A stretch of 64,000 nucleotides of DNA from Parcubacteria group bacterium GW2011_GWC1_36_108. GTDB lineage: Bacteria > Patescibacteriota > Minisyncoccia > Moranbacterales > GWC2-37-73. Each line of letters begins with the position of its first letter. The stretch's first letter is position 1. The translations under genes and the position numbers were made by a program. The notes beneath the pieces are model-generated. The model saw only the letters and a program-made list of their open reading frames with translations. It made no database searches and was not told the origin of the DNA. The stretch is taken from contig LBRD01000005.1 in assembly GCA_000991245.1 (NCBI GenBank), positions 10,944-74,943 on the forward strand, written 5' to 3'. Shown here in pieces: positions 5,854 through 48,097 of this stretch.

Positions 5854-8800
5854 TTAGCAAGTTGTTCCAGTTACGATTCCACCTTCGATTGTGATAGTAC
5901 AAGTATCAGTAGTCAGTGGACCTTTTACTACAGTAAGCGTACTGCTAACTCCACTGTTTCCATCAACCTTAAATACTCCAGTAGCTGAAACATCTTTAAC
6001 ATCTGAAAGATCATTTCCATTAGCATCAATGTCTGCTGCCATATTCAATGTGTCAGCAAGGTTAAGTCCTCCGCTTCCAGTAAAGTCAGTTCCACTGTTT
6101 CCAAGGTTAGTCAAAACATTATCATGCATATCAATGTCACCTCTCATATCAGAATCCCCTGTTATATCAAAACCTCCCGCAGTAACAGTGAACAGACCAC
6201 CAGAAGTTATTGCTCCACCGAATAATCCGCTAGTAGCAATATTCAAACTTCCGCTACCAACAAGATTCCCGCTAAGAGTAAGCGCTGAAAGATTTGTATC
6301 TCCGTTTGATTGAATTTGCCAATCACCGTCTGTAATTGAAACATTAGCATTAGAATTACCAATATGAACTTGCGCAGCGTCTGCCCCTGCTGTTCCAAGA
6401 TTTATTGTTGAATCTGGTCCAGCAGTGTTGTCAGAATTTGTAAGACCAGTAAGGAAATTTACACTGTCAGCATAAATTGTTGACCAACGTGAACCGCTTG
6501 TTCCAAGTGATCCACCAGTAATGTCACCCTCGACGTGCAAATTAGCCTTGCCAGTTCCTGTATTTCTAATAAAAACATCAGAATCAACAGCATTGTTTGC
6601 AATATCAATATTCATGCTGTTGCTTGTTGAAAAGATGTTTCCACCTGAAAGACCTGCTGTTCCATCGCTAAGTAAGAAAGCTAACACGCTGCCTGTTGTA
6701 TTTACATTTATAGCGCTGTTTAAGTCGCTACCCACTATTGTTCCGTCTATAATTTTTGCAGAATCAACACTATCACCAGAAAGTTTTGCGTTTGTTACTG
6801 CACCATCAACAATAGAATTTGTTGTTATTGAATTATCAACCACAGCAGCTGCAAGAGTTGCTGTGCTAGCATTTCCTGTGATGTTAGCAGCTATATCAGA
6901 TGAAAAAGTTTTAATTCCATCTATTGTTTGATCTCCAATTGTGTAGACACCATTAGTAACAGTTTCAGCATTTCCTGTGATATTAGCAACTATGTCAGAT
7001 GAAAAAGTTTTAATTCCATCGATTGTCTGATCTCCGATTGTGTAAACACCATTGGTAACAGTTGCTGCATTTCCTGTAATATTAGCAACAACATCCTGCG
7101 TGAATGTATTGATGCCAGTCAAAGTGTTATTAGCAGCAGCATAAACTCCATCAGTAACGGTTGCAGCATTTCCTGTAATGTTAGCAACTATATCAGATGA
7201 AAAAGTCTTAATTCCATCTATTGTTTGATCTCCGATTGTGTAAACACCATTGGTAACAGTTGCTGCATTTCCAGTAATATTAGCAACGACATCCTGTGTG
7301 AATGTGTTGATACCAGTCAAGGTATTATTAGCAGCAGTATAAACTCCATCAGTAACGGTTGCGGCATTTCCTGTTATATTAGCAATAACATTTGAAGTAA
7401 ATGTTTTAATTCCATCGATTGTCTGATCTCCGATTGTGTAAACACCATTAGTAACTGTTCCAGCATTTCCACTCACGTTGCCAGTTACATCACCAACAAG
7501 ATCTCCAGTAAATTGAACTGCAGTTATAGTTGTAGTTGAATCGATATTACTTCCGGTTATTGTGTCATTTGCGATTTTTACACCAGTTACCGCTCCGTCA
7601 GCAATCTTTGCAGTAGTTACACTTTGATCTGCAAGCTTCACAGGAGTAATAGCACTATCTGCGATTTTTCCAGAAGTAACAGCAGCATCAAGAATTTTTG
7701 AAGTGATAACAGAATCATCTGCTAATTTTGAAGTTGTTACTGCACCATCAAGAATTTTTGCAGTAATCACGCTACCATCAGCTAATTTAATATCAGTAAT
7801 TGCACCGTCCTGGACTTTTGCTGTTGAGATTGAACCGTCAGCTAAATTAACAGCCACGATTGTTCCATCGGCAATTTTTCCAGAAGTAACAGCACCGTCA
7901 ATTATTTTTGCAGTCGAAACAGAATTGTCAGCTAATTTTATCGTAGTAATTATTCCATCTGCAAGATCAGCTACTTGAACCGTTCCGTCAACAATCTTTG
8001 CGCTAGTCACACTATCGTCTGCTAGCTTTACTGTAGTGATTGCACCATCAGCAATTTTTTCTGTTGTTATTGTTGCATCCAGGATTTTAACTGCTGTTAC
8101 TGAATCATCTGCTAATATTGCAGTTGTCACAGCCAGGTCTTGAATTTTTGAAGTACTAACTGATCCATCTGCCAATTTGATATTTGTAATAGCGCTGTCT
8201 TCAATTTTTGCTGTTGAAATTGAACCGTCAGCTAAATTAACAGCCACGATTGTTCCATCGGCAATTTTTCCAGAAGTAATTGTTCCATCTAAAATTTTTG
8301 AATTAACCACGCTACCGTCAGCCAATTTGCTTGTAAGAATAGCACCATCAGCGATTTGATTGCTTCCAACTCCACCATCAGCAATCCCAACAGTTCCGAC
8401 ACCAATAGTTATTCCTGTTCCAGCGCCGACAGTTAAGGTTACATTTCCAAGTGTTCCACCACCAATCAATCCGTCTCCAGCAGTAACACCAGTTATTGTT
8501 CCACCACCAGCAATTGAGTTAACAGTCCAAGAACCATCGTTATTATTAACAACTGTAACATTGTCTCCAGCAACAATTGATTTAACCATACTTCCGTCTG
8601 AAGCAAGTTTATTTCCTGTTATTGTTCCATCAGCAATCTGCAGCCCAGTTATTGAACCGATAATTTTTGAAGCGTCTAAGCTTGTTATCCATGCAGGGTC
8701 ATTATATGAGCCAGTTGTGTAAACACCATCAGTAACGGTGTCAGCATTTCCTGTAAGTGTTCCAACAACGCTGCCAATAAGATTACCCACGAATGAACCA

Positions 8801-9654
8801 GCAGTAACTGTTCCAGTTGTTGTGACATCTCCGCTGCTTATAACGGTCACGCCATCAGTAAAAGAAGCTGCTGTAACAGCGCCTGTAGTGTTGATAGTAA
8901 TATCTGAAGCTAATTTTGAACCCGTGATTTCATTGTCGCCAATTTTAGCGGCAGTTACCACGCCGTCTGCCAATTTTGCAGTTACAATAGCTCCGTCAGC
9001 AATTTTTATTGTTGTCACAGCGCCATCAGCCAATTTTCCATTCGTTACTGCGCCATCAACGATCTTTGCGGTCACAATTGCATCATCTGCAATTTTAACT
9101 CCCGTAACAACTCCGTCAGCAATCTTTGCTGTTGTCACGCTGCCATCAGCCAATTTAACATCAGTTATTGCACCATCAACAATTTTTGCTGTAGTCACGC
9201 TATCATCAGCCAATTTTAAAGTCACAATTGCACCATCAGCAATTTTACCAGCAGTGATTGAGCCATTTGCCAAAGAAACGCCAGCAATTGCACCATTAGC
9301 CAATTTGGCAGAAGTGATTGCACCATTTTTGATGTCTCTTGCTTTAATCGAATCTCGCAAATTTAATTTTGAATATCGTATGCCAGCATTATTTGCAATA
9401 TCCTTATTTTTTAATCGACGTGAAATGTCTACTACATATTGAACACCATTTTTTTCAGCAACCTTTATCACGCTCAATATTTTTTCAGTTCTTGTTTTAG
9501 CATTAACACCATAAAAACCTGCTCCTAAAATAAAAACAACCATAACCAAAACAGTTACGATTTTAACTTTCTTTGCATTTTTCTTCAAAACGTCAGAAAC
9601 AACCCTTCCCTTTTCTAACACTTCCTGCCCAAAAGCTTTTTTACTCATACTCAT
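5854..9654 (-). CDS. giant repetitive cell-surface protein (N-terminal membrane anchor; dozens of ~9-10-aa [KL]ADG[AS]VT[TS]AKI beta-helix-like repeats plus 33/66-aa repeats)
   Basis: 1266 aa ORF; TM segment VTVLVMVVFILGAGFYGV; extreme Thr/Gly/Ala/Val/Ile repeat composition; DNA tandem repeats of 99 and 198 bp. Confidence 0.75.
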   Translation of the reverse strand: MSMSKKAFGQEVLEKGRVVSDVLKKNAKKVKIVTVLVMVVFILGAGFYGVNAKTRTEKILSVIKVAEKNGVQYVVDISRRLKNKDIANNAGIRYSKLNLRDSIKARDIKNGAITSAKLANGAIAGVSLANGSITAGKIADGAIVTLKLADDSVTTAKIVDGAITDVKLADGSVTTAKIADGVVTGVKIADDAIVTAKIVDGAVTNGKLADGAVTTIKIADGAIVTAKLADGVVTAAKIGDNEITGSKLASDITINTTGAVTAASFTDGVTVISSGDVTTTGTVTAGSFVGNLIGSVVGTLTGNADTVTDGVYTTGSYNDPAWITSLDASKIIGSITGLQIADGTITGNKLASDGSMVKSIVAGDNVTVVNNNDGSWTVNSIAGGGTITGVTAGDGLIGGGTLGNVTLTVGAGTGITIGVGTVGIADGGVGSNQIADGAILTSKLADGSVVNSKILDGTITSGKIADGTIVAVNLADGSISTAKIEDSAITNIKLADGSVSTSKIQDLAVTTAILADDSVTAVKILDATITTEKIADGAITTVKLADDSVTSAKIVDGTVQVADLADGIITTIKLADNSVSTAKIIDGAVTSGKIADGTIVAVNLADGSISTAKVQDGAITDIKLADGSVITAKILDGAVTTSKLADDSVITSKILDAAVTSGKIADSAITPVKLADQSVTTAKIADGAVTGVKIANDTITGSNIDSTTTITAVQFTGDLVGDVTGNVSGNAGTVTNGVYTIGDQTIDGIKTFTSNVIANITGNAATVTDGVYTAANNTLTGINTFTQDVVANITGNAATVTNGVYTIGDQTIDGIKTFSSDIVANITGNAATVTDGVYAAANNTLTGINTFTQDVVANITGNAATVTNGVYTIGDQTIDGIKTFSSDIVANITGNAETVTNGVYTIGDQTIDGIKTFSSDIAANITGNASTATLAAAVVDNSITTNSIVDGAVTNAKLSGDSVDSAKIIDGTIVGSDLNSAINVNTTGSVLAFLLSDGTAGLSGGNIFSTSNSMNIDIANNAVDSDVFIRNTGTGKANLHVEGDITGGSLGTSGSRWSTIYADSVNFLTGLTNSDNTAGPDSTINLGTAGADAAQVHIGNSNANVSITDGDWQIQSNGDTNLSALTLSGNLVGSGSLNIATSGLFGGAITSGGLFTVTAGGFDITGDSDMRGDIDMHDNVLTNLGNSGTDFTGSGGLNLADTLNMAADIDANGNDLSDVKDVSATGVFKVDGNSGVSSTLTVVKGPLTTDTCTITIEGGIVTGTTC
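6880..7480 (-). repeat. in-frame 99/198-bp coding tandem repeats inside the surface-protein gene
   Basis: gtgtaaacaccattggtaacagttgctgcatttcc recurs at 7040, 7238 and 7436 (198-bp period); protein unit NGVYTIGDQTIDGIKTF...ITGNAATVT. Confidence 0.6.
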
Positions 9655-10920: not shown

Positions 10921-10975
10921 ATGTTTTATTTATGCTATTTTTCTTACCAATACATATTACAACTAAATAAAAAAA

Positions 10976-11026: not shown

Positions 11027-12088
11027 CTACTCCAAAACTTCCTTTGAAACCGTCTCGATTTTAACGCTAAGCATTTTTGTTTTAAACAAGATAAACATAA
11101 TAAATTTAATAATCAAAAACCAAGCGACACTAATAATCGAACCTATTGGATATATCGTCAAGAAAAGCACTGCTGCCAGAATAATTGAAAAAATTGGACT
11201 TTTCTCACTCCCTGTAGCATCAGTATTAAAATAGCTATTAATCTTATTGCTAACAAGGCCTGAGAATATTTCTGATATTTTTTCATTTCCAACGATTGGA
11301 ATTCCTGCCAAATCAGCAAACTGCTTTCTGCCATTTTGAAGAACGAGTTCTTGATTTTTTTGTGACATTTGAGCTTCAGCACCCAAAAAGTTTTCAATGG
11401 CTTGTTTTTTTAATGCTTCTTTTTGTGCCAAGGTCAGATTCGCTGGAAGTTGTGCATCCAACAATTGTTCATTCTCGGGAGACAATTCGCCATTTTGCAC
11501 AAAATCTTTTTGGGACTGCAAAATAAACTGATCAACAGTAAGTTCTTGATCCTTGAGGACTTCAAATTGAGGATTAACTGAAGAAAGAAATGGGATAGCA
11601 ATTTTTTTGGTAACAAAACTGGCATCAAAATGTGGAACTTTCTTTTCCCCATCAAAATTATTCACTGTCAAAAAATATTGCATTGTTATCAAAAATGCAA
11701 TTGAAATCAAAAGGTATGATTTTCCGGCGCGCAAAGATTTCCAGATGCTTATTTTCAAATTGAAATCCATATCCTCCCTAATTCTCTTGGCAGCCAAAAT
11801 CAAAAAGAATCCGCTCAACAAAATCGCCACAAATTGAAGCCAGTCAAAGGCAAAAAAAAGACTCAGTGATAATGAACCAATTAAAACAAGTTTCAAAAGA
11901 AAATCATTCTGCGAAAGCACTGCACTTAAATAAATCAAAATAATATACACAGAAAAAAACGTCATCGGCACAGCCCAAGTGCTTGAAGCAGGAATCATTA
12001 CCGCGCTCTGCACAGACTGCCAAGCCAAAAAAGCAAACACCAACATCAGAAAATTTGGAACGTAGCTTAAAATTTTTCTTTTATTCAT
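11027..12088 (-). CDS. hypothetical multi-pass membrane protein
   Basis: 353 aa with several hydrophobic helices at both termini; no recognised domain. Confidence 0.55.
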   Translation of the reverse strand: MNKRKILSYVPNFLMLVFAFLAWQSVQSAVMIPASSTWAVPMTFFSVYIILIYLSAVLSQNDFLLKLVLIGSLSLSLFFAFDWLQFVAILLSGFFLILAAKRIREDMDFNLKISIWKSLRAGKSYLLISIAFLITMQYFLTVNNFDGEKKVPHFDASFVTKKIAIPFLSSVNPQFEVLKDQELTVDQFILQSQKDFVQNGELSPENEQLLDAQLPANLTLAQKEALKKQAIENFLGAEAQMSQKNQELVLQNGRKQFADLAGIPIVGNEKISEIFSGLVSNKINSYFNTDATGSEKSPIFSIILAAVLFLTIYPIGSIISVAWFLIIKFIMFILFKTKMLSVKIETVSKEVLE

Positions 12089-16903: not shown

Positions 16904-17146
16904 ATTTTTATAACCCCACAAATCTACAAATCTTTTACGAATATACAAATTAAATTCGTTTTTAAAATATTTGCAAAATTATAGGTTAAATTAATTATTG
17001 CTTATTATTTTTTGTTATATGTTACATGTTATATGTTTTATGTTATACTTATATTAGAGCTTGATACATCGCTATCTGCTTCGCCCTACGGGATATTTAA
17101 CTTATGCCCGTATGGGCTTTTTTATTTATAAAGTTTTCTTCAACCA

Positions 17147-17195
17147 CTTTATAAACTTTATAACTTTATAACTTTATAACTTTTTACTCTACCAC
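17147..17195. repeat. tandem octamer repeat (CTTTATAA)x4-5 between grpE and dnaK
   Basis: actttataactttataactttataactttttac; the inverse-orientation tract (TTTATAAAG)n is at 18534-18572. Confidence 0.5.
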
Positions 17196-17217: not shown

Positions 17218-17778
17218 CTATTCGACCACCACTCTTGCTGCACGAATAACTTTTTCTCCAATCTTATATCCCTTAGTTAAAACTTTTTTAATCTTGTTTT
17301 TATATTTGTGATCAACTTTGCAATCCACACATTCATGATCTTCAATTGCTTCGTGATAAATTGGATCAAAATTATCTCCAACCTTCACTTCAATTTCCTC
17401 AACCCCATTTTCGGTCACAATATTTTCCAATTGTTTTTGAATATACATAATTCCAGTTACCCAAGAATTTTCTTTTTGATCTTCCGGGATATGATCAGTC
17501 GAAGCATGAAAATTATCAATTACTGGCAGAATTTCTAAAATGATACTTTGCATTGCATATTTGATTAAATCTTTTTGCGACTCCGCACTTCTTTTTTTGT
17601 AATTTTCAAAGTCAGCTTGGCAACGCTGCCATCCTTCCAAGTTTTCATTTGCTTTTTTCTTTATCTCAGCAAATTCATCCATGGCCTCATCAAGAGAAAT
17701 ATTTTCCTCAACAGATTCTACATTTTTGAGATCAATAATTTCCTCTTTTTCTTTCTTTTTTTTGTGTTCTTTTGACAT
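17218..17778 (-). CDS. grpE: nucleotide exchange factor GrpE
   Basis: 186 aa; GrpE coiled-coil plus C-terminal beta domain (ILPVIDNF...VLTKGYKIGEKVIRAARV). Confidence 0.9.
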   Translation of the reverse strand: MSKEHKKKKEKEEIIDLKNVESVEENISLDEAMDEFAEIKKKANENLEGWQRCQADFENYKKRSAESQKDLIKYAMQSIILEILPVIDNFHASTDHIPEDQKENSWVTGIMYIQKQLENIVTENGVEEIEVKVGDNFDPIYHEAIEDHECVDCKVDHKYKNKIKKVLTKGYKIGEKVIRAARVVVE

Positions 17779-17783
17779 AGGTT

Positions 17784-18527
17784 TTAAAAAATATTTACCA
17801 TTATTATTACTACCATTGATGCTCCTAAAAGTTTCTTGACGTATTCAATCATTGATTTATTTTTTGCATATTCCATTCTTTTAGGACCAATGAGTGCCAG
17901 GATTCCTTTTTCACCAGAGCTCAATCTGTATGGCGATACAATCATTGAACAATTCGCTGTGCCATCAATTGGATTTTCTTTACCGATAAAAATTCTTGTT
18001 TCTCCTTCTTTAATATTCTTTGTGAGTTGATCAAATTTTTCATCAACATAATCCAACATTTCAACTAAACGGCACATTTCATCCAATTCCTTAAATTCAG
18101 GCTCTTCCATCAATTCTCGCATTCCAAAATCTGAAAAATCATCCTTCTCAACCATTCCACTAATAGCAAAGTTTCCACTCACGTGAGAAAGCAATTTTGC
18201 AGTTGTGCGAGTTAAGCGAGTGTTCTGCGCTTTTAATTTCAAAAACTCTCTTTGCATTTTTTGTTGATCCTCTTTTGAAAGCTCTTTGTCCTTCATCACT
18301 TCTTCCACAAAATATCGATAACCCTTGTCAGTTGGAATTCTGCCAGCGCTGATATGCGGTTGATACAGATATCCATCTTCTTCCAGCGCAGTCATATCAT
18401 TTCGTATTGTTGCTGGACTAACTTTAAACTTATATTTTTGAGCCAAAATACTACTACCAACCGGAATAGCGGTTTGAGTATATTCTTCAATCACAGCTGA
18501 TAATATTTTTTCTTGTCTTGGATTCAT
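17784..18527 (-). CDS. hrcA: heat-inducible transcription repressor HrcA (short form, 247 aa)
   Basis: N-terminal winged helix RQEKILSAVIEEYTQTAIPVGSSILAQKY; CIRCE lies directly upstream. Confidence 0.85.
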   Translation of the reverse strand: MNPRQEKILSAVIEEYTQTAIPVGSSILAQKYKFKVSPATIRNDMTALEEDGYLYQPHISAGRIPTDKGYRYFVEEVMKDKELSKEDQQKMQREFLKLKAQNTRLTRTTAKLLSHVSGNFAISGMVEKDDFSDFGMRELMEEPEFKELDEMCRLVEMLDYVDEKFDQLTKNIKEGETRIFIGKENPIDGTANCSMIVSPYRLSSGEKGILALIGPKRMEYAKNKSMIEYVKKLLGASMVVIIMVNIF

Positions 18528-18533
18528 ATAAAA

Positions 18534-18572
18534 TAGTTTATAAAGTTATAAAGTTTATAAAGTTTTTAAAGC
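18534..18572. repeat. tandem repeat (TTTATAAAG)x4 in the hrcA promoter region
   Basis: gtttataaagttataaagtttataaagtttttaaag. Confidence 0.5.
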
Positions 18573-32451: not shown

Positions 32452-32709
32452 TCAATTAGCTTTTTTGATTTGGGATATTAATTCCGATTTTTCTTCTCGT
32501 GATAATTTTTTGATACGATTTTCCTCTTTTGATGCAGTAGAGCGATTTTTGAATTTTTTTGCATAAACAAGTTCAACTGGCCGCCTACCACTCGTATATT
32601 TTGCGCCCAACTTTAAATTATTATGCTCATCAACTCTTCTTTTCAAATCTGTCGTAATGCCAGTATAAAAAGTTTTGTCAGAGCATTTCAAAATATATAT
32701 TTGCCACAT
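32452..32709 (-). CDS. GIY-YIG nuclease family protein (UPF0213/YhbQ-like)
   Basis: YILKCSDKTFYTGITTDLKRRVDEHN...GAKYTSGRRPVELVY. Confidence 0.75.
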   Translation of the reverse strand: MWQIYILKCSDKTFYTGITTDLKRRVDEHNNLKLGAKYTSGRRPVELVYAKKFKNRSTASKEENRIKKLSREEKSELISQIKKAN

Positions 32710-32898
32710 TTACTTGGAATATTTCGCCTTAAAATTATCCAGCTCCTCTTTGGGCACATTCTCCTCAATTCTTCTGACAATTTGATGAGCTCGAGTTGCA
32801 GAAATTTTACATTCTTTTGCAATATCACGAAAAAACTTACCTTCAACATGCATCTGATATATTTTTTTCCTTTCCTTTGTAAAATTATACGCTCCCAT
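32710..32898 (-). CDS. small HTH (sigma-70 region-4-like) DNA-binding protein
   Basis: FRDIAKECKISATRAHQIVRRIE; start placed at MGAYNF to avoid overlapping the helicase gene. Confidence 0.5.
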   Translation of the reverse strand: MGAYNFTKERKKIYQMHVEGKFFRDIAKECKISATRAHQIVRRIEENVPKEELDNFKAKYSK

Positions 32899-32918
32899 AA
32901 TTTTATTTTTTTTAATTT

Positions 32919-34232
32919 TTACACACAATTTTTTAAAAATGTTTTTTGGAGTTCCCGCTTTTTCAAAATTTTCATCTTGAGAACATATGTATCATTGTCA
33001 CGAGAAAGTTTCTCTAGAATTTTATTAAATTCATATACTTTTGGATTTACTTCCAAGGCTACTTTATTAATTCCTAATAATTTTATACCATCCAATGTCC
33101 TAACTCGCGAGAGTGCAACGTATCCCATTCCGTATTCAAAAGATTTAGACAAATCCATTTCAACCGCATCCAAGGTCATTCCCTGACTTTTATGCACTGT
33201 GATTGCCCAAGCAAGTCTTAGTGGTATTTGTGTTATGGTGGCAAGCGCTGATTCATTTTCTTCGATTGACCATTTCTCAGGATTTGCAATTATCGTTTTA
33301 CCAGAAAAAGTTTTTACTATCGGTGTACCAGCATGATCAAAATTAGTCACCATTCCCAATGTTCCATTAACATAACCTTTTTCAAAATTATTTTTCACAA
33401 ACATAACCACCGCACCTTTCTTGAGAAATAATGTTTCCGGAGCAAGACATCCCTTTTTTACCGCAGCTGCCACAAATTCATTTCCCTTGGAACTCATCTC
33501 AAAAATTCTAGCTTCTTCTTTTATCTTCTTAAGTTCCAAATTATTAATAGCATCAACATTTATATTATGTGTAAATAACTTGGTTGGCGTAACACTATTT
33601 TTTATATTTTTATTTTGACGTGACAAAATTAAATCTAAGGTTTTCTGATTGCAAGACTTGTTTCTGATGTCGTTTAAAATTTTAAGCATCTGTCCATCTT
33701 CTTGTCTATGTTGTTCTTCCAAATAACAAATTTTTGGAGCCATTTCTTGCCAAGCCGCAGATTCAATAACAAAGCGAGACTCTTCTCCAGATTTTGCCAC
33801 TGGTGGCAATTGAAAAAAATCTCCACACAAAATAACCTGCAATCCACCAAATGGCGAAAATGGCTCTTTAAATTTTTTGCAAATTGCATTAATAATATCG
33901 AGTTGATGCGCATGAAGCATAGACACTTCATCAATAATAAGCACGCTCGTGGTTGCAAAGCGTTGTTTATGATAATGTCTTTTTTTGAGCTTAGTATAAT
34001 CCTCTTCCGTGAATGTATCACTGATCCCCATTCCGGACCAAGAATGAATAGTTTGACCATTCATATGGGTCGCTGCAATTCCGGTTGAAGCAGTAATCGC
34101 CACACCAATACTATTCTCTTTTAGATATTCAATATATTGCTTTAACAAATATGTCTTGCCAGAGCCAGCAGGTCCCGTCAAAAAAACGTTATGTCCAAGC
34201 TTTAAAATATCGAGTGCTGTTTTTTGTTTCAT
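32919..34232 (-). CDS. PIF1/RecD-like ATP-dependent DNA helicase (AAA_30)
   Basis: Walker A FLTGPAGSGKT; LIIDEVSM; CGDFFQLPPV; C-terminal SH3-like fold. Confidence 0.8.
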   Translation of the reverse strand: MKQKTALDILKLGHNVFLTGPAGSGKTYLLKQYIEYLKENSIGVAITASTGIAATHMNGQTIHSWSGMGISDTFTEEDYTKLKKRHYHKQRFATTSVLIIDEVSMLHAHQLDIINAICKKFKEPFSPFGGLQVILCGDFFQLPPVAKSGEESRFVIESAAWQEMAPKICYLEEQHRQEDGQMLKILNDIRNKSCNQKTLDLILSRQNKNIKNSVTPTKLFTHNINVDAINNLELKKIKEEARIFEMSSKGNEFVAAAVKKGCLAPETLFLKKGAVVMFVKNNFEKGYVNGTLGMVTNFDHAGTPIVKTFSGKTIIANPEKWSIEENESALATITQIPLRLAWAITVHKSQGMTLDAVEMDLSKSFEYGMGYVALSRVRTLDGIKLLGINKVALEVNPKVYEFNKILEKLSRDNDTYVLKMKILKKRELQKTFLKNCV

Positions 34233-34320
34233 AAAATAAGCTTATCCTGTTTAGCTATTTTATTCAAGAGACAAAAAACAATCCCAATTAAATGGGACTG
34301 TTTTTGAGTTTCTGTTTTTT

Positions 34321-36417
34321 CTATTTGCTCGCATCAATCATCCTGCGAACTTCATCTAGATTTACTTGTGGACGCGTGCGCTGGGGTTTAAATTTTTTGG
34401 GAGCAATGTGCTGCATTTGCGAAAGTGACATTGGACGATCTTTTGAAACATAGGCTTTGTGTTCAACTTTTTTTTCAGCTGGCTGCGTCACTTTTTGCAC
34501 TGGCTTATTTTCTTGCACTGTTTTAATTGGTTGCCTTGTTGGTTGCTCAATTGGCGCAGCAAGATCAGCATTTTCTTCTTGCTGTCTTTGCATTTTTCTT
34601 TCTTGATTAAGTTTTTCCTTGGCAGTCATCCGTTGATATTCTTTGAGACAATCTTTGCAAAAGGTCGGCCTTTTTCCATCTGGCTGAAAAGGAATTTGAA
34701 TGTTGTCTCCACACATATCACAAATTGCATCAAATTTTGGCCTGTCATCAACTGGTTTGACGTAATAGTCAGGATTTTCCTCCTCTTGTTGCTGAATTTG
34801 GCTTGCTTGAGGCTGCGGTTGATTATATTCTCCAAGATCATCTTGATTTATAGGTGCTTTTTCAGTTGTTACCTGCGTCTGGATCACTTTTTGAGGTTGC
34901 GAAGCACCAAGGGGCTCTGGGATGCTTACAGAGGCCTGCGGCTCATTTTTTTGCTCAGCTGCGACTGGTTGCTGAATTTGAGGTTTTTGCACGGTTTGCT
35001 CAATTCTAGGGGCAAAGTTTTGATGAGCACTTTGTGCAGTCTGAGGCTGCGGAGCTTTGTATTGAACATTGTTTGGATTTTGAATAATTTGACCTGTTGG
35101 AGGCTTGTTGACCGTTTGAAAACCAGCAGCAGGCATAACACCAGCCCAACGAGAAATTTTATCTTCAACTTCTTCTTTACTAGAAGCATAACGCTCACGT
35201 GAGTTGGCAATGATCTTTTCTTCATTTTCGGCAGTATCTTCAATGTACACAGGCGGCAACACTTGAGCAGAAAAAGCATCCCCCGCAATTCCGTCAATCA
35301 TCAATTTCAGATAAATGTTATATTTTGGCAAATTCACAATATCATTTTGCACAAACACGGGCATAAATTCTTTTTCCAAAAATTCAGCATCCATCGCACC
35401 AACACGAAAAGAAATGATTGTGCCAGCATTTCCAAAAATAGCATCACGAACTTTTTCATCAATCTGAGTTATATATTGATTTGCCAAAATCAAATTGAGA
35501 CGATATTTTCGAGCCTCAGACAAAATATTAGCAAAAGATTCTGTTGCGAAGTTTTGAAACTCATCAACATACAAATAAAAATCCTTGCGCTGATCTTCTG
35601 GAATGTCCACGCGTCCCATTGCCGCCAGCTGAATCTTGGTAATCATCATAGCTCCCAAAAGCGCACCATTGTCCTCTCCAATTCGTCCTTTTGAAAGATT
35701 TATGATTAAAATCTTTCGAGTATCCATCGCATCGCGAATATCAAAAGAAGATTGAGTTTGACCAACAATATTTCTAATCAATGAGCTGGACAAAAATTGT
35801 CCAACCTTATTTTGAATCGGAGAAACAACTTCTTGCAAAACTTTATCACTCCATTTTGGAAATTCATCAACCCAGAATTGCCTGATCACAGGATCAGTAA
35901 CTTTCTCCACCACACGCTCGCGATATTTTTTGTCCACCAAAATTCTCGTCACTCCAAGCAAGGTGCTCCCAGGATATTCCAACAAAGCCAAGATTGCATT
36001 ACGCAAAATATATTCCAATCGAGGTCCCCAAGAATCAGCCCAAATCTTTTTGAAAACGCCAATGAGTCCCGATGCTACCAAATGTCTATAATCAGGATCA
36101 ACCGATTCCATCACATTAAAAGCCAGCGGATAATTTTGATCAGCCGGATTGAGGTATATAACATCATTAATACGATTTGCAGGAACCGCTTTCAAAAGTT
36201 TTTCAGCAGTGTCTCCGTGAGGATCGATATAGCAAATTCCGTGACCATTACGAATATCTTGCACCACCAAATTCTCCAGCAGGTTTGTTTTACCCATACC
36301 GGTTTTTCCGATGATATACATATGTCGAGTTCGGTCATCAGTTTTTATTCCGAAAACTCTCTCTTGATTTCTAAAGTTCGTTTTTGCAAAAAATGCAATT
36401 TCGTTGTTATTTGCCAT
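34321..36417 (-). CDS. TraD/TraG/VirD4-like (T4SS coupling-protein-like, AAA_10) P-loop ATPase with a Q/P-rich linker and C-terminal zinc ribbon
   Basis: Walker A IIGKTGMGKT; Walker B YLYVDEFQNF; C-terminal CDMCGDN...CKDC. Confidence 0.7.
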   Translation of the reverse strand: MANNNEIAFFAKTNFRNQERVFGIKTDDRTRHMYIIGKTGMGKTNLLENLVVQDIRNGHGICYIDPHGDTAEKLLKAVPANRINDVIYLNPADQNYPLAFNVMESVDPDYRHLVASGLIGVFKKIWADSWGPRLEYILRNAILALLEYPGSTLLGVTRILVDKKYRERVVEKVTDPVIRQFWVDEFPKWSDKVLQEVVSPIQNKVGQFLSSSLIRNIVGQTQSSFDIRDAMDTRKILIINLSKGRIGEDNGALLGAMMITKIQLAAMGRVDIPEDQRKDFYLYVDEFQNFATESFANILSEARKYRLNLILANQYITQIDEKVRDAIFGNAGTIISFRVGAMDAEFLEKEFMPVFVQNDIVNLPKYNIYLKLMIDGIAGDAFSAQVLPPVYIEDTAENEEKIIANSRERYASSKEEVEDKISRWAGVMPAAGFQTVNKPPTGQIIQNPNNVQYKAPQPQTAQSAHQNFAPRIEQTVQKPQIQQPVAAEQKNEPQASVSIPEPLGASQPQKVIQTQVTTEKAPINQDDLGEYNQPQPQASQIQQQEEENPDYYVKPVDDRPKFDAICDMCGDNIQIPFQPDGKRPTFCKDCLKEYQRMTAKEKLNQERKMQRQQEENADLAAPIEQPTRQPIKTVQENKPVQKVTQPAEKKVEHKAYVSKDRPMSLSQMQHIAPKKFKPQRTRPQVNLDEVRRMIDASK

Positions 36418-36504
36418 AGTTGTAACTAGCGTTGTAGTTATTGCTTATTAAAATGCATTCTTGTTTTTTTGTTGTGGGTTGTAAGTTGTGAGTTATGAGT
36501 TATT

Positions 36505-37785
36505 TTACTCTATTGGTAAGTTCGAAGGGGCGCCACCACGCTTGGCTTCCACTCGAGAAACTGATGGTGCGATCACATTCATATCTGGCAAGTGAAAGAT
36601 TGTTGCCAACTCCTCAGTACTCATTACCATCTGAACACCATCCCCGCTTCTGTTTCGATATCGACGCAAAATTTTGCGTTGACGATAACGCAAACGATTT
36701 CGTTGATTAACCCAATTTGCAAAAGTTTTAGACATATTGTCCGGCTTAAAGCCATTCATATTGTCATCATTAAATTGTTTTAAACTACCCCAAAAACCAG
36801 AAACTCCGTGAGATTTGTCAAAATTTTCTCTAAGACCAAGATATATGTATCGTCCTTTAACACTAAATTGCCATTTTCCAAGATTTTCCTCAACAGCTTT
36901 GAGCACATCTCTTTCTCCTGGAGAAAGACGGGTATCAAGCGGTTGCTCATCTTTCTTTTTTTCCGATGCAAATTCAACTGGCGAATGAGTAGCTTTAAAC
37001 AAGTTGCTAATAACATCAACAAAGTCTTTCCAAAATCTTTCCAGAATAGAATCGCTCTTTTTTTCGTTGCCTTTTAGTTTTTCAACTAATTCTTTTCCTT
37101 TTGTCGAAGCCCAAGATGGTGAATTTGGTGCAATAATCCATTGAAGCCACATCTGTTGCCCTGGACCAAGTTTACCCATAACTTCAAAAAGCCCAGCTAG
37201 TGGATCAATCATAGTGCCAGTGATATCTTCTTCAAATGCCTTATAAGATCGAATAGGATAAGCCAAATGCTTACTTGTAGGAGCAATATCAGCTCCCCAT
37301 AAATCCCATTTCCCGTTAGGAATAATTTTTGGCACATCATCAACATAATCAGGAACTTCAATTATTTCAACGTCAGGATATTGAGCATACAAAGCTGCCT
37401 CGACAAGATTACGATATTTTTTCATCGAACGAATATACAAGTGTACATCGCCAGCATTACTTACTATTTCCAAACTCATATAATCAGTGAACATACCACT
37501 GATATATACTTCAGCAATATCAAAACCTTTTTCAACTCCAGCAAAGGTTGTGAAAAGTGCCTCCATAGGCTTGGGACTTTTTTCAATATTTTTTGGCGGG
37601 ATAAGCTCCAAAAGCACCCAGTCAGCTGAAGCCCAAAAAGCATCCTGCACATGCCTCAGCCAATAAATTTTAAACGTAAAAAATAAAAGCGGCGGCAAAA
37701 TAATGAACCATACATAGCTCATCACCTGCGACGCCGTTTTTATATCTGTACCTATTCCAATTATTGAAGATGAAATAATGTCCAT
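36505..37785 (-). CDS. hypothetical membrane protein co-oriented 88 nt downstream of the T4CP-like ATPase
   Basis: 426 aa; N-terminal TM helix; Arg-rich C-terminus. Confidence 0.55.
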   Translation of the reverse strand: MDIISSSIIGIGTDIKTASQVMSYVWFIILPPLLFFTFKIYWLRHVQDAFWASADWVLLELIPPKNIEKSPKPMEALFTTFAGVEKGFDIAEVYISGMFTDYMSLEIVSNAGDVHLYIRSMKKYRNLVEAALYAQYPDVEIIEVPDYVDDVPKIIPNGKWDLWGADIAPTSKHLAYPIRSYKAFEEDITGTMIDPLAGLFEVMGKLGPGQQMWLQWIIAPNSPSWASTKGKELVEKLKGNEKKSDSILERFWKDFVDVISNLFKATHSPVEFASEKKKDEQPLDTRLSPGERDVLKAVEENLGKWQFSVKGRYIYLGLRENFDKSHGVSGFWGSLKQFNDDNMNGFKPDNMSKTFANWVNQRNRLRYRQRKILRRYRNRSGDGVQMVMSTEELATIFHLPDMNVIAPSVSRVEAKRGGAPSNLPIE

Positions 37786-37829
37786 TTTGTTGTATTTATT
37801 TTAGCGATACTAATACATGAATGAATGCG

Positions 37830-37905
37830 TATGTTGCGAATATGCCAATGACACGAATTTTTGCATTATTTGCATATTCGCGTATTTGCATGAATTTGCA
37901 TAATT
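37830..37905 (-). promoter_or_regulatory. array of ATGCAAAT direct repeats plus ATTCGCGTATT motif upstream of the 36505-37785 gene
   Basis: mRNA-sense: atgcaaattcatgcaaatacgcgaatatgcaaataatgcaaaaattcg. Confidence 0.4.
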
Positions 37906-37912
37906 CGTATCT

Positions 37913-38971: not shown

Positions 38972-39110
38972 ATGCTTTACGACTAAATTTGAATATATTA
39001 GGTTTCAAATTATATTAACACATATTAAAATTTTGTCAATAGGCAACAAAAAAATCAAGGGGTCCGGTAGAGACTCCTTGATTTGACACTAAATTTAATT
39101 CTTTTTTGCA

Positions 39111-41513: not shown

Positions 41514-41520
41514 AAAAATA

Positions 41521-41600
41521 GCTTCTCAGCCTTTAGCTTCTTAGCTTCTTAGAAAATTCAGGACACCTGAAAAGCTAAAAAGCTAACGCCTAAAAAGCTG
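41521..41600 (-). repeat. F-element copy F3 in the pheT leader
   Basis: mRNA-sense: cagctttttaggcgttagctttttagctttt-caggtgtcctga-attttctaagaagctaagaagctaaaggctgagaagctattttt-ATG. Confidence 0.5.
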
Positions 41601-46423: not shown

Positions 46424-48097
46424 TTAATCCAATATATCAGATTTTTTTACTCCTACCATCCACATTCTATTATGGATCCAGTCACTAATGATAACTTTAA
46501 GCATTGTTCTGGTAATTATCACAGCAGTAAACATTGAAACCACAACTCCAATAAAAAGTGCGGCTGCAAAACCTTTCACAAAACCCGTACCCATAAGATA
46601 CAAAATTCCAGCGGTCAGCAAGGATGAAATGTTGCCGTCGCGAATTGATGTCCAAGCACGTTTGAATCCTTCTTCAAGTGAATTCGCAATCGTTCTTCCA
46701 CCACGTATTTCTTCTTTGGTTCTTTCAAAAATCAAAATATTAGCATCGACCGCCATACCAATTGAAAGCACGAATCCTGCAATACCGGAAAGTGTCAGGG
46801 TAATTCCTGTCATTTTGAAAATAGTTATCATCACTGCAGTATAAATAAGCAAAGCTAATGATGCGACAAGTCCTAGGAAGCGATAGAAGATAAGCATAAA
46901 AACAACAACTGCTCCGAGGCCTATTGCTCCAGCAATCAAAATACTTCTAAGCGAATCTGCTCCAAGAGTTGCTTCAACGCTTTGTTGACCAACCAATGTC
47001 AAAGGAACTGGCAGCGCACCTTGATTTAATCTGTCAGAAATATCCTTGGCTTCTTTGAATGTGTAATTTCCTGTAATCACCGCTTGCCCGTTTGTGATTT
47101 CAACTTGAACGGTTGGTGCTATCTGCAATTGTCCATCCAAGAAAATTGCGATTTCTTTTCCTAGATTTTTTTTGGTTAGTTCTGCGAAAAGCTTTGTGCC
47201 TTCTTCGTCAAATTGAAGAGAAACTTCCGGTTCTCCAAGACCTTGCCCGTTTGAATATTGCGCTGTTGCACTTTTTAAGTTTTTTCCGGTAAGCGCCGTT
47301 GTTTGATATTTGAACTGTTCATATTGAGAAGGATCTTTTTTTGCAAAAAGAATGTGCGCACCATGAACTTCCAAATTTTCTCCTTCCCCACGAGATTCAA
47401 TAAATTTAATAATGTGCCAACCATATTGAGATTCCACCAAATCAGGATAAATTTCTCCTGATTTCAAATTGCTTTCGAATAGAATCTTATCAAATTCTGG
47501 CACAAAAGCACCTTTTTTCACGAAATCCAAATCTCCGCCCTTATCCTTGGAGCCGGGATCTTCACTATTATCCTTGGCAAGCTGAGCAAAATCTCCACCA
47601 TTTTTGACTTCATCGAAAATTTTCTGTGCTTTTTCTTTTGCCTGCGTGTTCATCTGATCAAACATTTGTTGAACTTGCGGATCGACAGGACCTTCTTCTT
47701 TAAATTCCAATAACGGAGCGTCTTTAATTTTAGCCTTAGCTTCTTCAATATCTTTAATACCGGGAAGTTCAACAATGATACGATTTTCTCCACTGCTCTT
47801 GGCAATTTGCACCAATGGCTCCCCCACACCAAAAGCATTCACGCGTCTTTCAATGACAGTCTGCGCGCCCTCCATTGCTTCTGCCACTTTTGATGGATCA
47901 ATATTCGAAACATCCGCTTTATATTCCAAATGAAATCCTCCTTGCAAATCAAGTCCCAATTTCAATTTAAACTTATTCAGTGCGTCATAAAGTGGCGTTA
48001 TTTTTGAAACTGCCTGTGGATATGCAACAAGACCAGCAACCACTGCCAAAACGATTACCCCAGCAAATTTCAATTGTAATTTTTTCTTTATATTCAT
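46424..48097 (-). CDS. secD: protein translocase subunit SecD carrying an embedded parvulin-type PPIase domain in the periplasmic P1 region
   Basis: LGLDLQGG and RRVNAFGVGEPLVQ (P1 base); then NGGDFAQLAKDNSEDPGSKDKGGDLDFVKKGAFVPEFDKILF...SQYGWHIIKF (matching PpiC [27 protein letters not shown]...TQFGYHIIKV); then the P1 base resumes (EPEVSLQFDEEGTKLFAELTKKNLGKEIAIFLDG) and six TM helices. Confidence 0.88.
   Translation of the reverse strand: MNIKKKLQLKFAGVIVLAVVAGLVAYPQAVSKITPLYDALNKFKLKLGLDLQGGFHLEYKADVSNIDPSKVAEAMEGAQTVIERRVNAFGVGEPLVQIAKSSGENRIIVELPGIKDIEEAKAKIKDAPLLEFKEEGPVDPQVQQMFDQMNTQAKEKAQKIFDEVKNGGDFAQLAKDNSEDPGSKDKGGDLDFVKKGAFVPEFDKILFESNLKSGEIYPDLVESQYGWHIIKFIESRGEGENLEVHGAHILFAKKDPSQYEQFKYQTTALTGKNLKSATAQYSNGQGLGEPEVSLQFDEEGTKLFAELTKKNLGKEIAIFLDGQLQIAPTVQVEITNGQAVITGNYTFKEAKDISDRLNQGALPVPLTLVGQQSVEATLGADSLRSILIAGAIGLGAVVVFMLIFYRFLGLVASLALLIYTAVMITIFKMTGITLTLSGIAGFVLSIGMAVDANILIFERTKEEIRGGRTIANSLEEGFKRAWTSIRDGNISSLLTAGILYLMGTGFVKGFAAALFIGVVVSMFTAVIITRTMLKVIISDWIHNRMWMVGVKKSDILD

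Follow-up and report, generated by a model that had tools for sequence, protein, structure and literature searches.

A three-gene operon in a Moranbacterales chromosome

The stretch of DNA analyzed here (the window) comprises 64,000 nt of the genome of Parcubacteria group bacterium GW2011_GWC1_36_108 (Patescibacteriota; Minisyncoccia; Moranbacterales; GWC2-37-73), taken from positions 10,944 to 74,943 of the forward strand of contig LBRD01000005.1 (GCA_000991245.1), and coordinates are window positions unless another locus is named. An initial annotation had singled out five consecutive minus-strand genes, encoding a GIY-YIG nuclease, a 62-amino-acid (aa) helix-turn-helix (HTH) protein, a PIF1/RecD-family helicase, an ATPase resembling the coupling proteins (T4CPs) of type IV secretion systems (T4SSs), and a membrane protein, and had read all five as one minimal DNA-translocation, DNA-uptake, or defense module. 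All five open reading frames (ORFs) are present on the minus strand in the ORF list (Table 1). The conserved unit at this locus, however, is a three-gene operon that recurs across Patescibacteria lineages and consists of a gene for a protein with sigma-70 region 4 and HARE-HTH domains (sigma-r4/HARE), a gene for a membrane protein of family DUF8128 (PF26449), and a gene for a VirD4/TrwB-type ATPase. The neighboring genes are of the housekeeping type and encode aminoacyl-tRNA synthetases, DnaB, DnaK/DnaJ/GrpE/HrcA, SecA, SecDF, MurB, and MnmA. No T4SS, pilus, or relaxase domain was found in the 26 main ORFs scanned within the window, smaller ORFs having been left out. The initial statement that pilus or full T4SS genes are missing was therefore correct for the ORFs scanned here, but a VirB4-type T4SS is encoded elsewhere in 80% of Patescibacteria genomes (PMC12102498).

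Conservation of gene order

Neighboring genes were scored by tblastn and jackhmmer, with both methods in agreement, in 80 loci from different GTDB species (Moranbacteria level; 46 to 89% DUF8128 identity) that were anchored on DUF8128. The ATPase gene lay directly downstream of the DUF8128 gene in 74 of the 76 testable loci. The sigma-r4/HARE gene, which had been placed outside the module, lay directly upstream in 73 of 75 and is thus the third conserved member. All three genes were adjacent in 68 of the 71 loci that were testable throughout, and the other cases were offset artefacts of the adjacency window. At 37 to 40% DUF8128 identity, the three-gene unit was kept among other neighbors (SecDF upstream, EF-P or AspRS downstream), and in one locus (L087) its first two genes overlap; the sigma-r4/HARE gene was also found, with differing flanking genes, in L086, L087, and the P0253 contig. 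When a metagenome scan was seeded with the most distant DUF8128 members (28 to 39% identical to the window protein), the ATPase gene adjoined that for DUF8128 in about 50 of 69 loci, and the sigma-r4/HARE gene did so in 36 of 64. Some DUF8128 sub-branches in the metagenome set (L097-L108 and L126-L161) have no adjacent ATPase gene, and several of them keep the upstream sigma-r4/HARE gene; inspected by eye, the downstream genes in these ATPase-less loci include candidates for a GT4-type glycosyltransferase, a Dus-type enzyme, or a split ComEC beside pilM.

The other three genes of the proposed module behaved differently. The PIF1 gene was found in 3 of the 80 GTDB loci (L003, L008, and L009) and the GIY-YIG gene likewise in three (L003, L007, and a weak opposite-strand match in L058), and the small HTH ORF had a homolog in none of the 80 and in 0/163 related loci overall. 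In most genomes MnmA, and in some another housekeeping gene, directly follows the ATPase gene. Failure to co-occur in other genomes had been named at the outset as a finding that would speak against the module, and this is what was observed for the helicase, HTH, and GIY-YIG genes; synteny was conserved for the ATPase/DUF8128 pair.

TABLE 1 Operon genes, flanking genes, and noncoding elements of the window (the last row gives positions in other loci)
Feature	Coordinates	Strand	Basis and remarks
GIY-YIG gene, 85 aa	32452-32709	-	Pfam; outside module
Small ORF with subthreshold HTH	32710-32928	-	72 aa from TTG, 62 aa from first ATG; outside module
PIF1/Dda-like superfamily 1B (SF1B) helicase gene, 437 aa	32919-34232	-	Pfam, PHROG; outside module, lineage-specific insert
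Terminator-like hairpin	34274-34305	-	Between ATPase stop and PIF1 start
Operon gene 3, soluble VirD4/TrwB-type ATPase, 698 aa	34321-36417	-	Pfam, NCBIfam, PDB matches
CxxC-x17-CxxC zinc ribbon	34639-34743	-	ATPase residues 559-593
Operon gene 2, DUF8128 (PF26449) membrane protein, 426 aa	36505-37785	-	Family assignment, transmembrane segment, fused homologs
ATGCAAAT x3 + ATGCAAAA x1 array	37859-37901	-	127-nt spacer upstream of DUF8128
Operon gene 1, Sigma70 region 4 + HARE-HTH protein, 352 aa	37913-38971	-	Pfam
Promoter-like TTGACA-16-TAATAT with TG extension	39012-39039	-	~40 nt upstream of sigma-r4/HARE gene; consensus scan only
CAACG hairpin examples	L049:1345-1366, L040:9974-9995, L036:9963-9984		Within L027-L079

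A soluble motor of the coupling-protein type

The ATPase consists of a motor (approximately residues 1 to 425), a variable Q/P-rich linker, a C-terminal zinc ribbon, and a basic tail. In Pfam it matched TrwB_AAD_bind (44.5 bits against a cutoff of 20.5; E = 1.3e-11), TraG-D_C (28.2 bits; cutoff, 22), and DUF87, and its orthologs also carry T4SS-DNA_transf. Of the initial label "TraD/VirD4/AAA_10-like," the VirD4/TrwB-type motor was borne out by Pfam and the AAA_10 part was not. Among VirB4-type motor hidden Markov models (HMMs), neither AAA_10 nor CagE matched, and TIGR00929 reached 15 bits against a cutoff of 643. The NCBIfam cutoffs for TraD/VirD4 families were also not reached (SXT_TraD, 53 versus 366 bits; conj_TOL_TraD, 39 versus 648; CD1115 family, 35 versus 250), and CedD (1e-7) and CedB (8.5e-4) gave weak matches. 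The Walker A (GKTGMGKT, residues 37 to 44) and Walker B (YLYVDEFQ, residues 281 to 288) motifs named in the initial annotation are both there and are invariant among orthologs. By phmmer against the PDB, the ATPase matched TrwB (2.3e-7) and DotL, and a Foldseek search with its model was led by TrwB, DotL, and Cagβ, with DndH and HerA ranking next; neither VirB4 nor FtsK was within the top 50 matches. In this model, whose mean predicted local distance difference test score (pLDDT) is only 59, a helical block (approximately residues 108 to 232) separates the two Walker motifs; the TMt of the top match, TrwB, was ~0.46. No transmembrane (TM)-like segment was found in the ATPase, whose Walker A motif begins at residue 37.

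The C-terminal CxxC...CxxC ribbon that had been noticed was supported by Pfam (zf_Tbcl_2, 1.8e-10) and by NCBIfam (TIGR04272, CxxC-x17-CxxC, 2.5e-11). It is of the treble-clef type, is modeled with block-mean pLDDT values of 84 to 93 (residues ~560 to 610), and recurs as a CxxC...CxxC pattern in 87 of the 108 full-length ATPase orthologs from loci of the candidate phyla radiation (CPR). P0443 of "Ca. Moranbacteria bacterium GW2011_GWC2_37_73" has the same sequence as the ATPase (100% identity), and ATPase orthologs are 48 to 72% identical where the DUF8128 and sigma-r4/HARE proteins are ~30% identical. The family search was saturated, each of the 8,000 candidates scored passing E <= 1e-10. Phage G and SPO1-type phages carry motor homologs, as do plasmids of haloarchaea, Streptomyces, Bradyrhizobium, and Sulfitobacter. 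The copy on a plasmid of the alphaproteobacterium Sulfitobacter mediterraneus (L081; NZ_CP081110.1, locus positions 5953-7140) is a stand-alone motor of 395 aa, 42% identical to the window ATPase (E = 5e-101), and lies among transposases with no DUF8128 gene nearby, which suggests horizontal spread of a CPR-type motor.

Canonical T4CPs (TrwB of R388, VirD4, TraD, DotL, and Cagβ) share with the window ATPase the Walker motifs, the above-cutoff TrwB_AAD_bind and TraG-D_C domains, and perhaps, as judged from the model of pLDDT 59, a helical insertion between the two motifs, and they are its best PDB matches by both sequence and structure. The window ATPase differs from them in having no N-terminal TM domain of its own, the anchor being carried by the separate DUF8128 protein; in having a treble-clef zinc ribbon; and in falling below the TraD/VirD4 equivalog cutoffs. 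Its gene also differs in setting, since it is chromosomal, unusually conserved, placed in a core-gene context, and not beside a T4SS or a relaxase. FtsK/SpoIIIE, HerA, and archaeal CedB/CedD are membrane-associated DNA pumps of the same ATPase superfamily, and HerA is seen among the Foldseek matches and CedD and CedB among the weak NCBIfam matches, but all of these matches are much weaker than those to coupling proteins. The alpha and gamma domains of FtsK were also not detected in the window ATPase (Pfam).

The DUF8128 membrane protein

PF26449 is precomputed on a protein (P0001) that is 100% identical to the 426-aa protein and on all 120 homologs among the matches listed. A local Pfam scan of the protein gave no DUF8128 match, and the local copy probably does not contain that model. 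The family comprises 1,656 clusters at the 50% level (E <= 0.001), and nothing was found in the literature searched on PF26449, on DUF8128, or on HARE-HTH combined with Patescibacteria. In keeping with the N-terminal anchor that had been proposed, the protein has one TM-like segment at approximately residues 20 to 43, followed by an alpha/beta domain that is predicted to be cytoplasmic; such a segment was present in 174 of 206 homologs. Toward the C terminus there is a conserved motif, EELAxxxHxP...AP...R.EAK.G.P..LP. The membrane helix of the pair is therefore on DUF8128 and not on the ATPase, and this indicates that DUF8128 supplies the anchor that canonical coupling proteins have at their own N terminus. 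The catalytic motifs of the ATPase are intact and invariant. Long DUF8128 members (540 to 691 aa) were considered as possible ATPase fusions and rejected, since their C-terminal extensions carry no Pfam domain.

The AlphaFold2 model of DUF8128 (pLDDT, 87.8; predicted TM-score, 0.82) consists of a long N-terminal helix and then alpha/beta domains. Against the PDB, the only significant Foldseek matches were R388 T4SS chains, including TrwK/VirB4 (ranks 1 to 13; E values of 7e-5 to 2e-3), with TM-scores of only 0.33 to 0.37, and the model also matched gp155 of phage G, a VirB4-like protein with its P-loop domain at residues 331 to 547 (E = 9e-7). VirB4 proteins (TrwK and gp155) have an N-terminal alpha/beta domain and then a motor of the HerA/FtsK superfamily, a two-part layout that DUF8128 and the ATPase share. 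Since Walker A is absent from DUF8128, the part of VirB4 that is matched would be the N-terminal domain (NTD), and a VirB4-NTD-like fold is likely, if unproven, for DUF8128. At the level of sequence profiles, no similarity to two VirB4-like sequences was seen, and a DUF8128 profile found no match among PDB sequences even at E <= 10; the ATPase, for its part, is closer to coupling proteins than to VirB4.

Single-chain relatives on plasmids and phages

In several mobile elements the two proteins correspond to one polypeptide. On Shouchella clausii plasmid NZ_CP012476.1, an 883-aa "DUF87" protein aligned with DUF8128 residues 101 to 250 over its residues 55 to 187 (E = 3e-10) and with ATPase residues 32 to 374 over its residues 348 to 704 (E = 2e-40). 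The profile phrog_5156 (824 positions) matched DUF8128 at 28 to 358 and the ATPase at 407 to 805. The N-terminal half of gp156 of Bacillus phage G (825 aa) was aligned with the DUF8128 profile by hhalign at 98.5% probability, with the EELAxxxHxP motif included, and its C-terminal half matched the ATPase (E = 2e-45); gp156 was also ranked first when the DUF8128 model was searched with Foldseek against BFVD (E = 9e-17). A 913-aa protein of phage JL matched both halves in separate searches, and the DUF8128 model structurally, while SPO1 gp27.4 is a motor-domain homolog and was compared over the motor only. In the Shouchella, gp156, and phrog_5156 proteins the domain order is the gene order of the window. 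The Shouchella protein, phrog_5156, the gp156 sequence matches, and the Foldseek match to gp156 agree in showing that DUF8128 and the ATPase correspond to the two halves of a protein that is a single chain elsewhere. The initial view of the membrane protein as a partner of the ATPase was right in pairing the two, but a detached N-terminal half of that single chain describes it better than an independent partner does.

Apart from being single polypeptides, the fused forms differ from the window pair in being located on mobile elements, beside a Replic_Relax or VirB4-like gene, with no sigma-r4/HARE partner seen beside them, and the two that were checked have no N-terminal membrane helix. The Shouchella plasmid encodes a complete T4SS of the monoderm type, which includes its own AAA_10 VirB4 as a separate protein, conjugal-transfer proteins, and a lytic transglycosylase, and the gene for the fused protein adjoins the Replic_Relax (relaxase-like) gene, which is the position expected of a coupling protein. 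In phage G, a lytic jumbo phage, the gene for VirB4-like gp155 is directly upstream of that for gp156, and none of the eight neighboring genes shown around the pair is annotated as encoding a T4SS channel. On a megaplasmid of Pontibacillus sp. (L083; NZ_CP062975.1, locus positions 5902-9169), an ORF that is DUF8128-like over its full length and has an N-terminal TM helix is followed by ATPase fragments, apparently a decaying copy; a sigma-factor-like HTH gene and a JAB-domain gene are found a few kilobases downstream.

The sigma-r4/HARE protein and published genetics

The regulator gene that had been noted beyond the repeat array encodes a protein with Sigma70_r4 at residues 30 to 78 (2.3e-10) and HARE-HTH at residues 230 to 290 (8.4e-15) in Pfam. 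Sigma region 2 was not detected in this 352-aa protein, and the NCBIfam sigma matches covered region 4 only and were far below their cutoffs; from its domain content, then, the protein is not a canonical sigma factor.

Transposon sequencing (Tn-seq) of "Ca. Southlakia epibionticum" (Saccharimonadia; Wang et al. 2023, PMC10633639, Tables S1 and S2) provides genetic data on a related locus. SEML1_0294, a 349-aa Sigma70_r4 plus HARE-HTH protein with the domain architecture of the window protein, is encoded immediately upstream of SEML1_0293 on the same strand and was called essential, while SEML1_0293 (921 aa, with a TrwB domain at 402 to 719 and a P-loop domain from residue 361) was called nonessential, its normalized reads falling from 5,817 to 1,372 over passages; both were flagged as core, Patescibacteria-enriched families (PMC10633639). 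Gene order and strand are those of the window, with sigma-r4/HARE directly upstream of a TrwB-type ATPase. SEML1_0293 differs from the window ATPase in its length and in having its motor only from about residue 361 to 402, and it is apparently a fused DUF8128-ATPase form, its N-terminal ~360 to 400 residues fitting the size of DUF8128. In the same organism the T4SS is essential and its cluster has no recognizable coupling protein, a second T4CP-like protein (SEML1_0142) is essential, and SEML1_0096, also essential, is an FtsK of canonical build, in which 4TM, alpha, motor, and gamma domains are all present (PMC10633639). In a survey of Patescibacteria, 5,713 VirD4-like (T4CP-like) proteins were found in 2,918 of 3,035 genomes, VirB4 was found in 2,417 of the 3,035, and only 148 of the 5,713 T4CP-like genes were near virB4; relaxases were almost absent, and the authors raised exaptation of the T4CP-like genes as a possibility (Quiñonero-Coronel et al. 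2025, PMC12102498). No description of partner genes of the ATPase was found in the main texts of these two papers (PMC10633639 and PMC12102498).

Genes downstream of the operon

The GIY-YIG call on the 85-aa ORF stands well above the Pfam cutoff (PF01541, residues 1 to 72; 64.2 versus 22.6 bits; E = 1.4e-17). The helicase call also holds, since both the PIF1 core (PF05970; 133 bits; E = 1.6e-38) and the 2B domain (Pif1_2B_dom; 31.5 bits) were matched, as was a Dda-like helicase in PHROG (1.8e-72). The third ORF exists and is 62 aa long from its first ATG, but its HTH is subthreshold (HTH_38, 18.9 bits against a cutoff of 27 bits). The gap between the ATPase stop and the PIF1 start holds, 16 nt from the former, an intrinsic-terminator-like hairpin (AAAAACAGTCCCA-TTTAAT-TGGGATTGTTTTT) followed by a T-run, which probably marks the 3' end of the operon. 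On the basis of this hairpin and of the rare co-occurrence described above, the PIF1, HTH, and GIY-YIG genes do not belong to the module but make up an unrelated insert, variable among strains, that follows the operon terminator. In a locus with 37% DUF8128 identity (L086), an 85-aa GIY-YIG gene (L086:6634-6891) is immediately upstream of the sigma-r4/HARE gene, i.e., on the other side of the operon from that in the window, and small GIY-YIG genes seem to move around this locus.

The defense reading was examined with the component HMMs of PADLOC-DB v2, the system-level logic of PADLOC or DefenseFinder not being applied. Only partial matches were obtained, namely, mad8 for the ATPase (9e-19) and PDC-S68, PDC-M16A, and RecD-like components for the P-loop region of the PIF1 protein. 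There was no full-length component match and no system among these HMMs, and the GIY-YIG, HTH, and DUF8128 proteins had no match of any kind, so that a defense module was not borne out.

Repeat arrays and leader elements

The repeat array reported upstream of the membrane-protein gene is real and consists of three exact copies of ATGCAAAT (37868-37901) plus one ATGCAAAA variant. Only four such clusters of 8-mers occur in the window, compared with 0.04 expected per shuffle. The 127-nt spacer that holds the array (37786-37912, minus strand) folds at -27.3 kcal/mol (z = -2.77; equaled by 2 of 200 shuffles), and the fold centers on an inverted repeat of 10 bp, GCGAATATGC / GCATATTCGC, with which the third ATGCAAAT copy overlaps. 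In L001 and L004, the closest relatives, this place is taken by TACGAAAC-type units that share a ACGCGAAT core with those of the window, and all copies of the repeat unit seem to have been altered in concert from one genome to another. The idea that the ATGCAAAT array is a conserved operator of the module was rejected, since no related locus contains the array and the unit in L001 and L004 is a different one. An operator-type role for arrays of this kind is nonetheless plausible, as the other short arrays of the window are likewise intergenic. Tandem GTTATAAA(G) units are found between grpE and dnaK (17146-17183) and tandem reverse-complement CTTTATAA(A) units just upstream of hrcA (18538-18564); these inverted arrays flank hrcA (17784-18527) and grpE (17218-17778) and may be a candidate non-CIRCE heat-shock operator. 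Three copies of TAGCTTCT (41519-41549) occupy the spacer between pheS and pheT, right before the start of pheT (41513).

The promoter-like site upstream of the sigma-r4/HARE gene is a weak candidate for the operon promoter, as promoter-like sites in the region were as many as in shuffled sequences in the consensus scan. In a more distant Moranbacteria clade (L027 to L080), 41 of 54 loci have a CAACG motif at most ~70 nt upstream of the DUF8128 start. CAACG(N) is mostly the loop of a hairpin with a 4- to 7-bp stem, 5 to 36 nt upstream of the start (Table 1). Over 35 distinct sequences, 88.6% of the stem cells were paired, compared with 47.5% in shuffles, and none of 500 shuffles reached the observed value. 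The covariation score of the stem was 0.94, compared with 0.12 to 0.32 for slid controls, all five pairs have changed on both sides, and G·U pairs occur on the sense strand. The hairpin is absent from the window and had no Rfam match, only tRNAs being found in five hairpin-carrying loci. The DUF8128-ATPase genes of these loci thus probably have an RNA leader element that is not yet catalogued. No Rfam family was matched within the window.

Other features of the window

A SecD homolog (46424-48097, minus strand) contains a PpiC-type rotamase (peptidyl-prolyl isomerase [PPIase]) domain at residues 148 to 235, between the SecD_1st and P1-head domains, and is thus an unusual SecD-PPIase fusion. 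Two large proteins without an assigned function are encoded amid the otherwise housekeeping genes of the window, both on the minus strand. One, of 1,266 aa (5854-9654), had fragmentary Pfam matches only (BppL_N and Asp23), and the other, of 353 aa (11027-12088), had no Pfam match.

Proposed function and alternatives

Taken as a whole, the data are best explained by a three-gene operon in which DUF8128 and the ATPase are the split halves of a single ancestral protein that was exapted as an accessory machine, and we consider this explanation, on balance, to be the probable one. Confidence is high as regards the identity and architecture of the unit. The functional description, a DNA-handling accessory system that is not strictly T4SS dependent, is offered tentatively, with odds somewhat short of even. 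By the positive-inside rule, DUF8128 would place its single N-terminal helix in the membrane and its large domain in the cytoplasm, where it would dock the ATPase, probably via its conserved EELAxxxHxP motif, which is C-terminal and adjoins the motor in the single-chain relatives. The ATPase may form a TrwB-like hexameric ring and may use ATP to move or recruit a substrate, most likely DNA, at the membrane, with the zinc ribbon and basic tail as the putative substrate- or partner-binding end. The multi-winged-helix sigma-r4/HARE protein could be a DNA-binding or regulatory partner or merely the co-transcribed, essential first gene. In Patescibacteria the unit has the appearance of an accessory machine, exapted and inherited vertically, rather than of the essential coupling protein of their T4SS. 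This is suggested by the dispensability of SEML1_0293 where the T4SS and SEML1_0142 are essential, by the excess of T4CP-like genes over VirB4-positive genomes, and by the housekeeping neighborhood.

Several observations weigh against this explanation or parts of it. DUF8128 was without an adjacent ATPase gene in 16 of 69 distant loci and without an adjacent sigma-r4/HARE gene in 26 of 64. The likeness of DUF8128 to the VirB4 NTD comes from Foldseek, at the low TM-scores given above, and hhalign of the DUF8128 profile with two VirB4-like sequences gave no signal. With a mean pLDDT of 59 for the ATPase model, which was built from a close-homolog alignment, the case for an all-alpha domain and for a hexamer is weak. 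Membrane anchoring is not universal in the family, as judged from the predicted segments: the Shouchella fused protein has no TM-like segment, and gp156 has internal hydrophobic segments only and none at its N terminus. The equation of the SEML1_0293 N terminus with DUF8128 rests on length, not on sequence, and the assignment of a substrate is entirely inferred. Finally, an essential sigma-r4/HARE gene beside a dispensable ATPase gene suggests that the sigma-r4/HARE protein has another main job.

The alternative that survives best, though we regard it as unlikely, is that the ATPase/DUF8128 pair is the dedicated coupling protein of the VirB4-type T4SS, encoded apart from it and feeding DNA or protein into the channel. 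The T4CP-like motor fits this proposal, as do the lack of a recognizable coupling protein in the T4SS cluster of S. epibionticum (PMC10633639) and the frequent location of T4CP genes far from virB4 (PMC12102498). The fused Shouchella homolog, moreover, is encoded beside a Replic_Relax gene on a plasmid with a full monoderm T4SS, and a DUF8128 fold that matches VirB4-type proteins could mediate docking. However, SEML1_0293 is nonessential in S. epibionticum, where the T4SS is essential and the different T4CP-like protein SEML1_0142 is essential as well. Furthermore, genomes with T4CP-like genes outnumber those with VirB4 by ~500, hardly any relaxases occur in Patescibacteria, and the fused form is carried by lytic Bacillus phages without an annotated T4SS channel.

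A bolder version of the split-protein explanation, which we hold to be distinctly unlikely, is that DUF8128 and the motor represent a third, unrecognized lineage of T4SS-type ATPases, intermediate or hybrid, with a VirB4-like N-domain and a VirD4-like motor. The Patescibacteria ancestor would have domesticated this protein into a T4SS-independent membrane machine with an essential, RNA-polymerase-related sigma-r4/HARE protein. If true, such a machine might, for example, deliver DNA (chromosomal or incoming) or nascent transcripts to the membrane while the cell lives as an epibiont.

A housekeeping pump for chromosomal DNA, serving FtsK/SpoIIIE-like segregation or dimer resolution and guided by the sigma-r4/HARE protein, appears very unlikely. 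It would be in keeping with the core-genome context, the very high conservation of the motor, its anchoring in the membrane, a multi-winged-helix partner that recalls the FtsK gamma domain, and the gradual fall in Tn-seq reads of a gene that is not essential. The motor, however, resembles TrwB, DotL, and Cagβ, with HerA lower and FtsK not in the top 50, and S. epibionticum has a canonical essential FtsK (SEML1_0096). Because that FtsK coexists with the locus, a replacement of FtsK was rejected.

Still less credible is the proposal that the key pair is sigma-r4/HARE and DUF8128, the latter being a membrane tether or regulator of an essential transcription-related factor and the ATPase a secondary add-on. 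A sigma-like gene followed by a gene for a single-pass membrane protein resembles extracytoplasmic function (ECF) sigma/anti-sigma operons, the adjacency of the two genes is kept in 9 of 55 distant loci with no adjacent ATPase gene, and the sigma-r4/HARE gene is essential in S. epibionticum. Yet the plasmid and phage fusions join DUF8128 to the ATPase and not to a sigma-like domain, ATPase adjacency is commoner than sigma adjacency in the distant loci, and the sigma-r4/HARE protein has no sigma region 2.

The five-gene module of the initial annotation, in spite of genes that are co-oriented and closely spaced, a plausible functional set of DNA motor, helicase, and nuclease, and weak PADLOC matches (partial domains and not system calls), is extremely improbable and appears largely refuted by synteny: ATPase-DUF8128 adjacency in 74 of 76 loci stands against 3/80 each for PIF1 and GIY-YIG and 0/80 for HTH, the ATPase gene is directly followed by MnmA or another housekeeping gene in most genomes, a terminator-like hairpin separates it from PIF1, and the GIY-YIG gene of L086 is on the opposite side of the operon.

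The helicase and nuclease that gave the locus the look of a defense or uptake system are thus incidental, which matters for defense mining in CPR genomes. VirD4-like "orphan" ATPases are among the most widespread of the Patescibacteria-enriched proteins (2,918 of 3,035 genomes), and published work had suggested only exaptation. The present analysis gives these orphans a testable anatomy, in which the ATPase would be one half of a split protein whose other half is the uncharacterized DUF8128. Its genes are held in one operon with that for a sigma-r4/HARE protein, which is essential in the one genetically tractable member, and single-chain relatives of the pair occur in large Bacillus phages and, where a coupling protein would be encoded, on a conjugative plasmid of the Bacillaceae.

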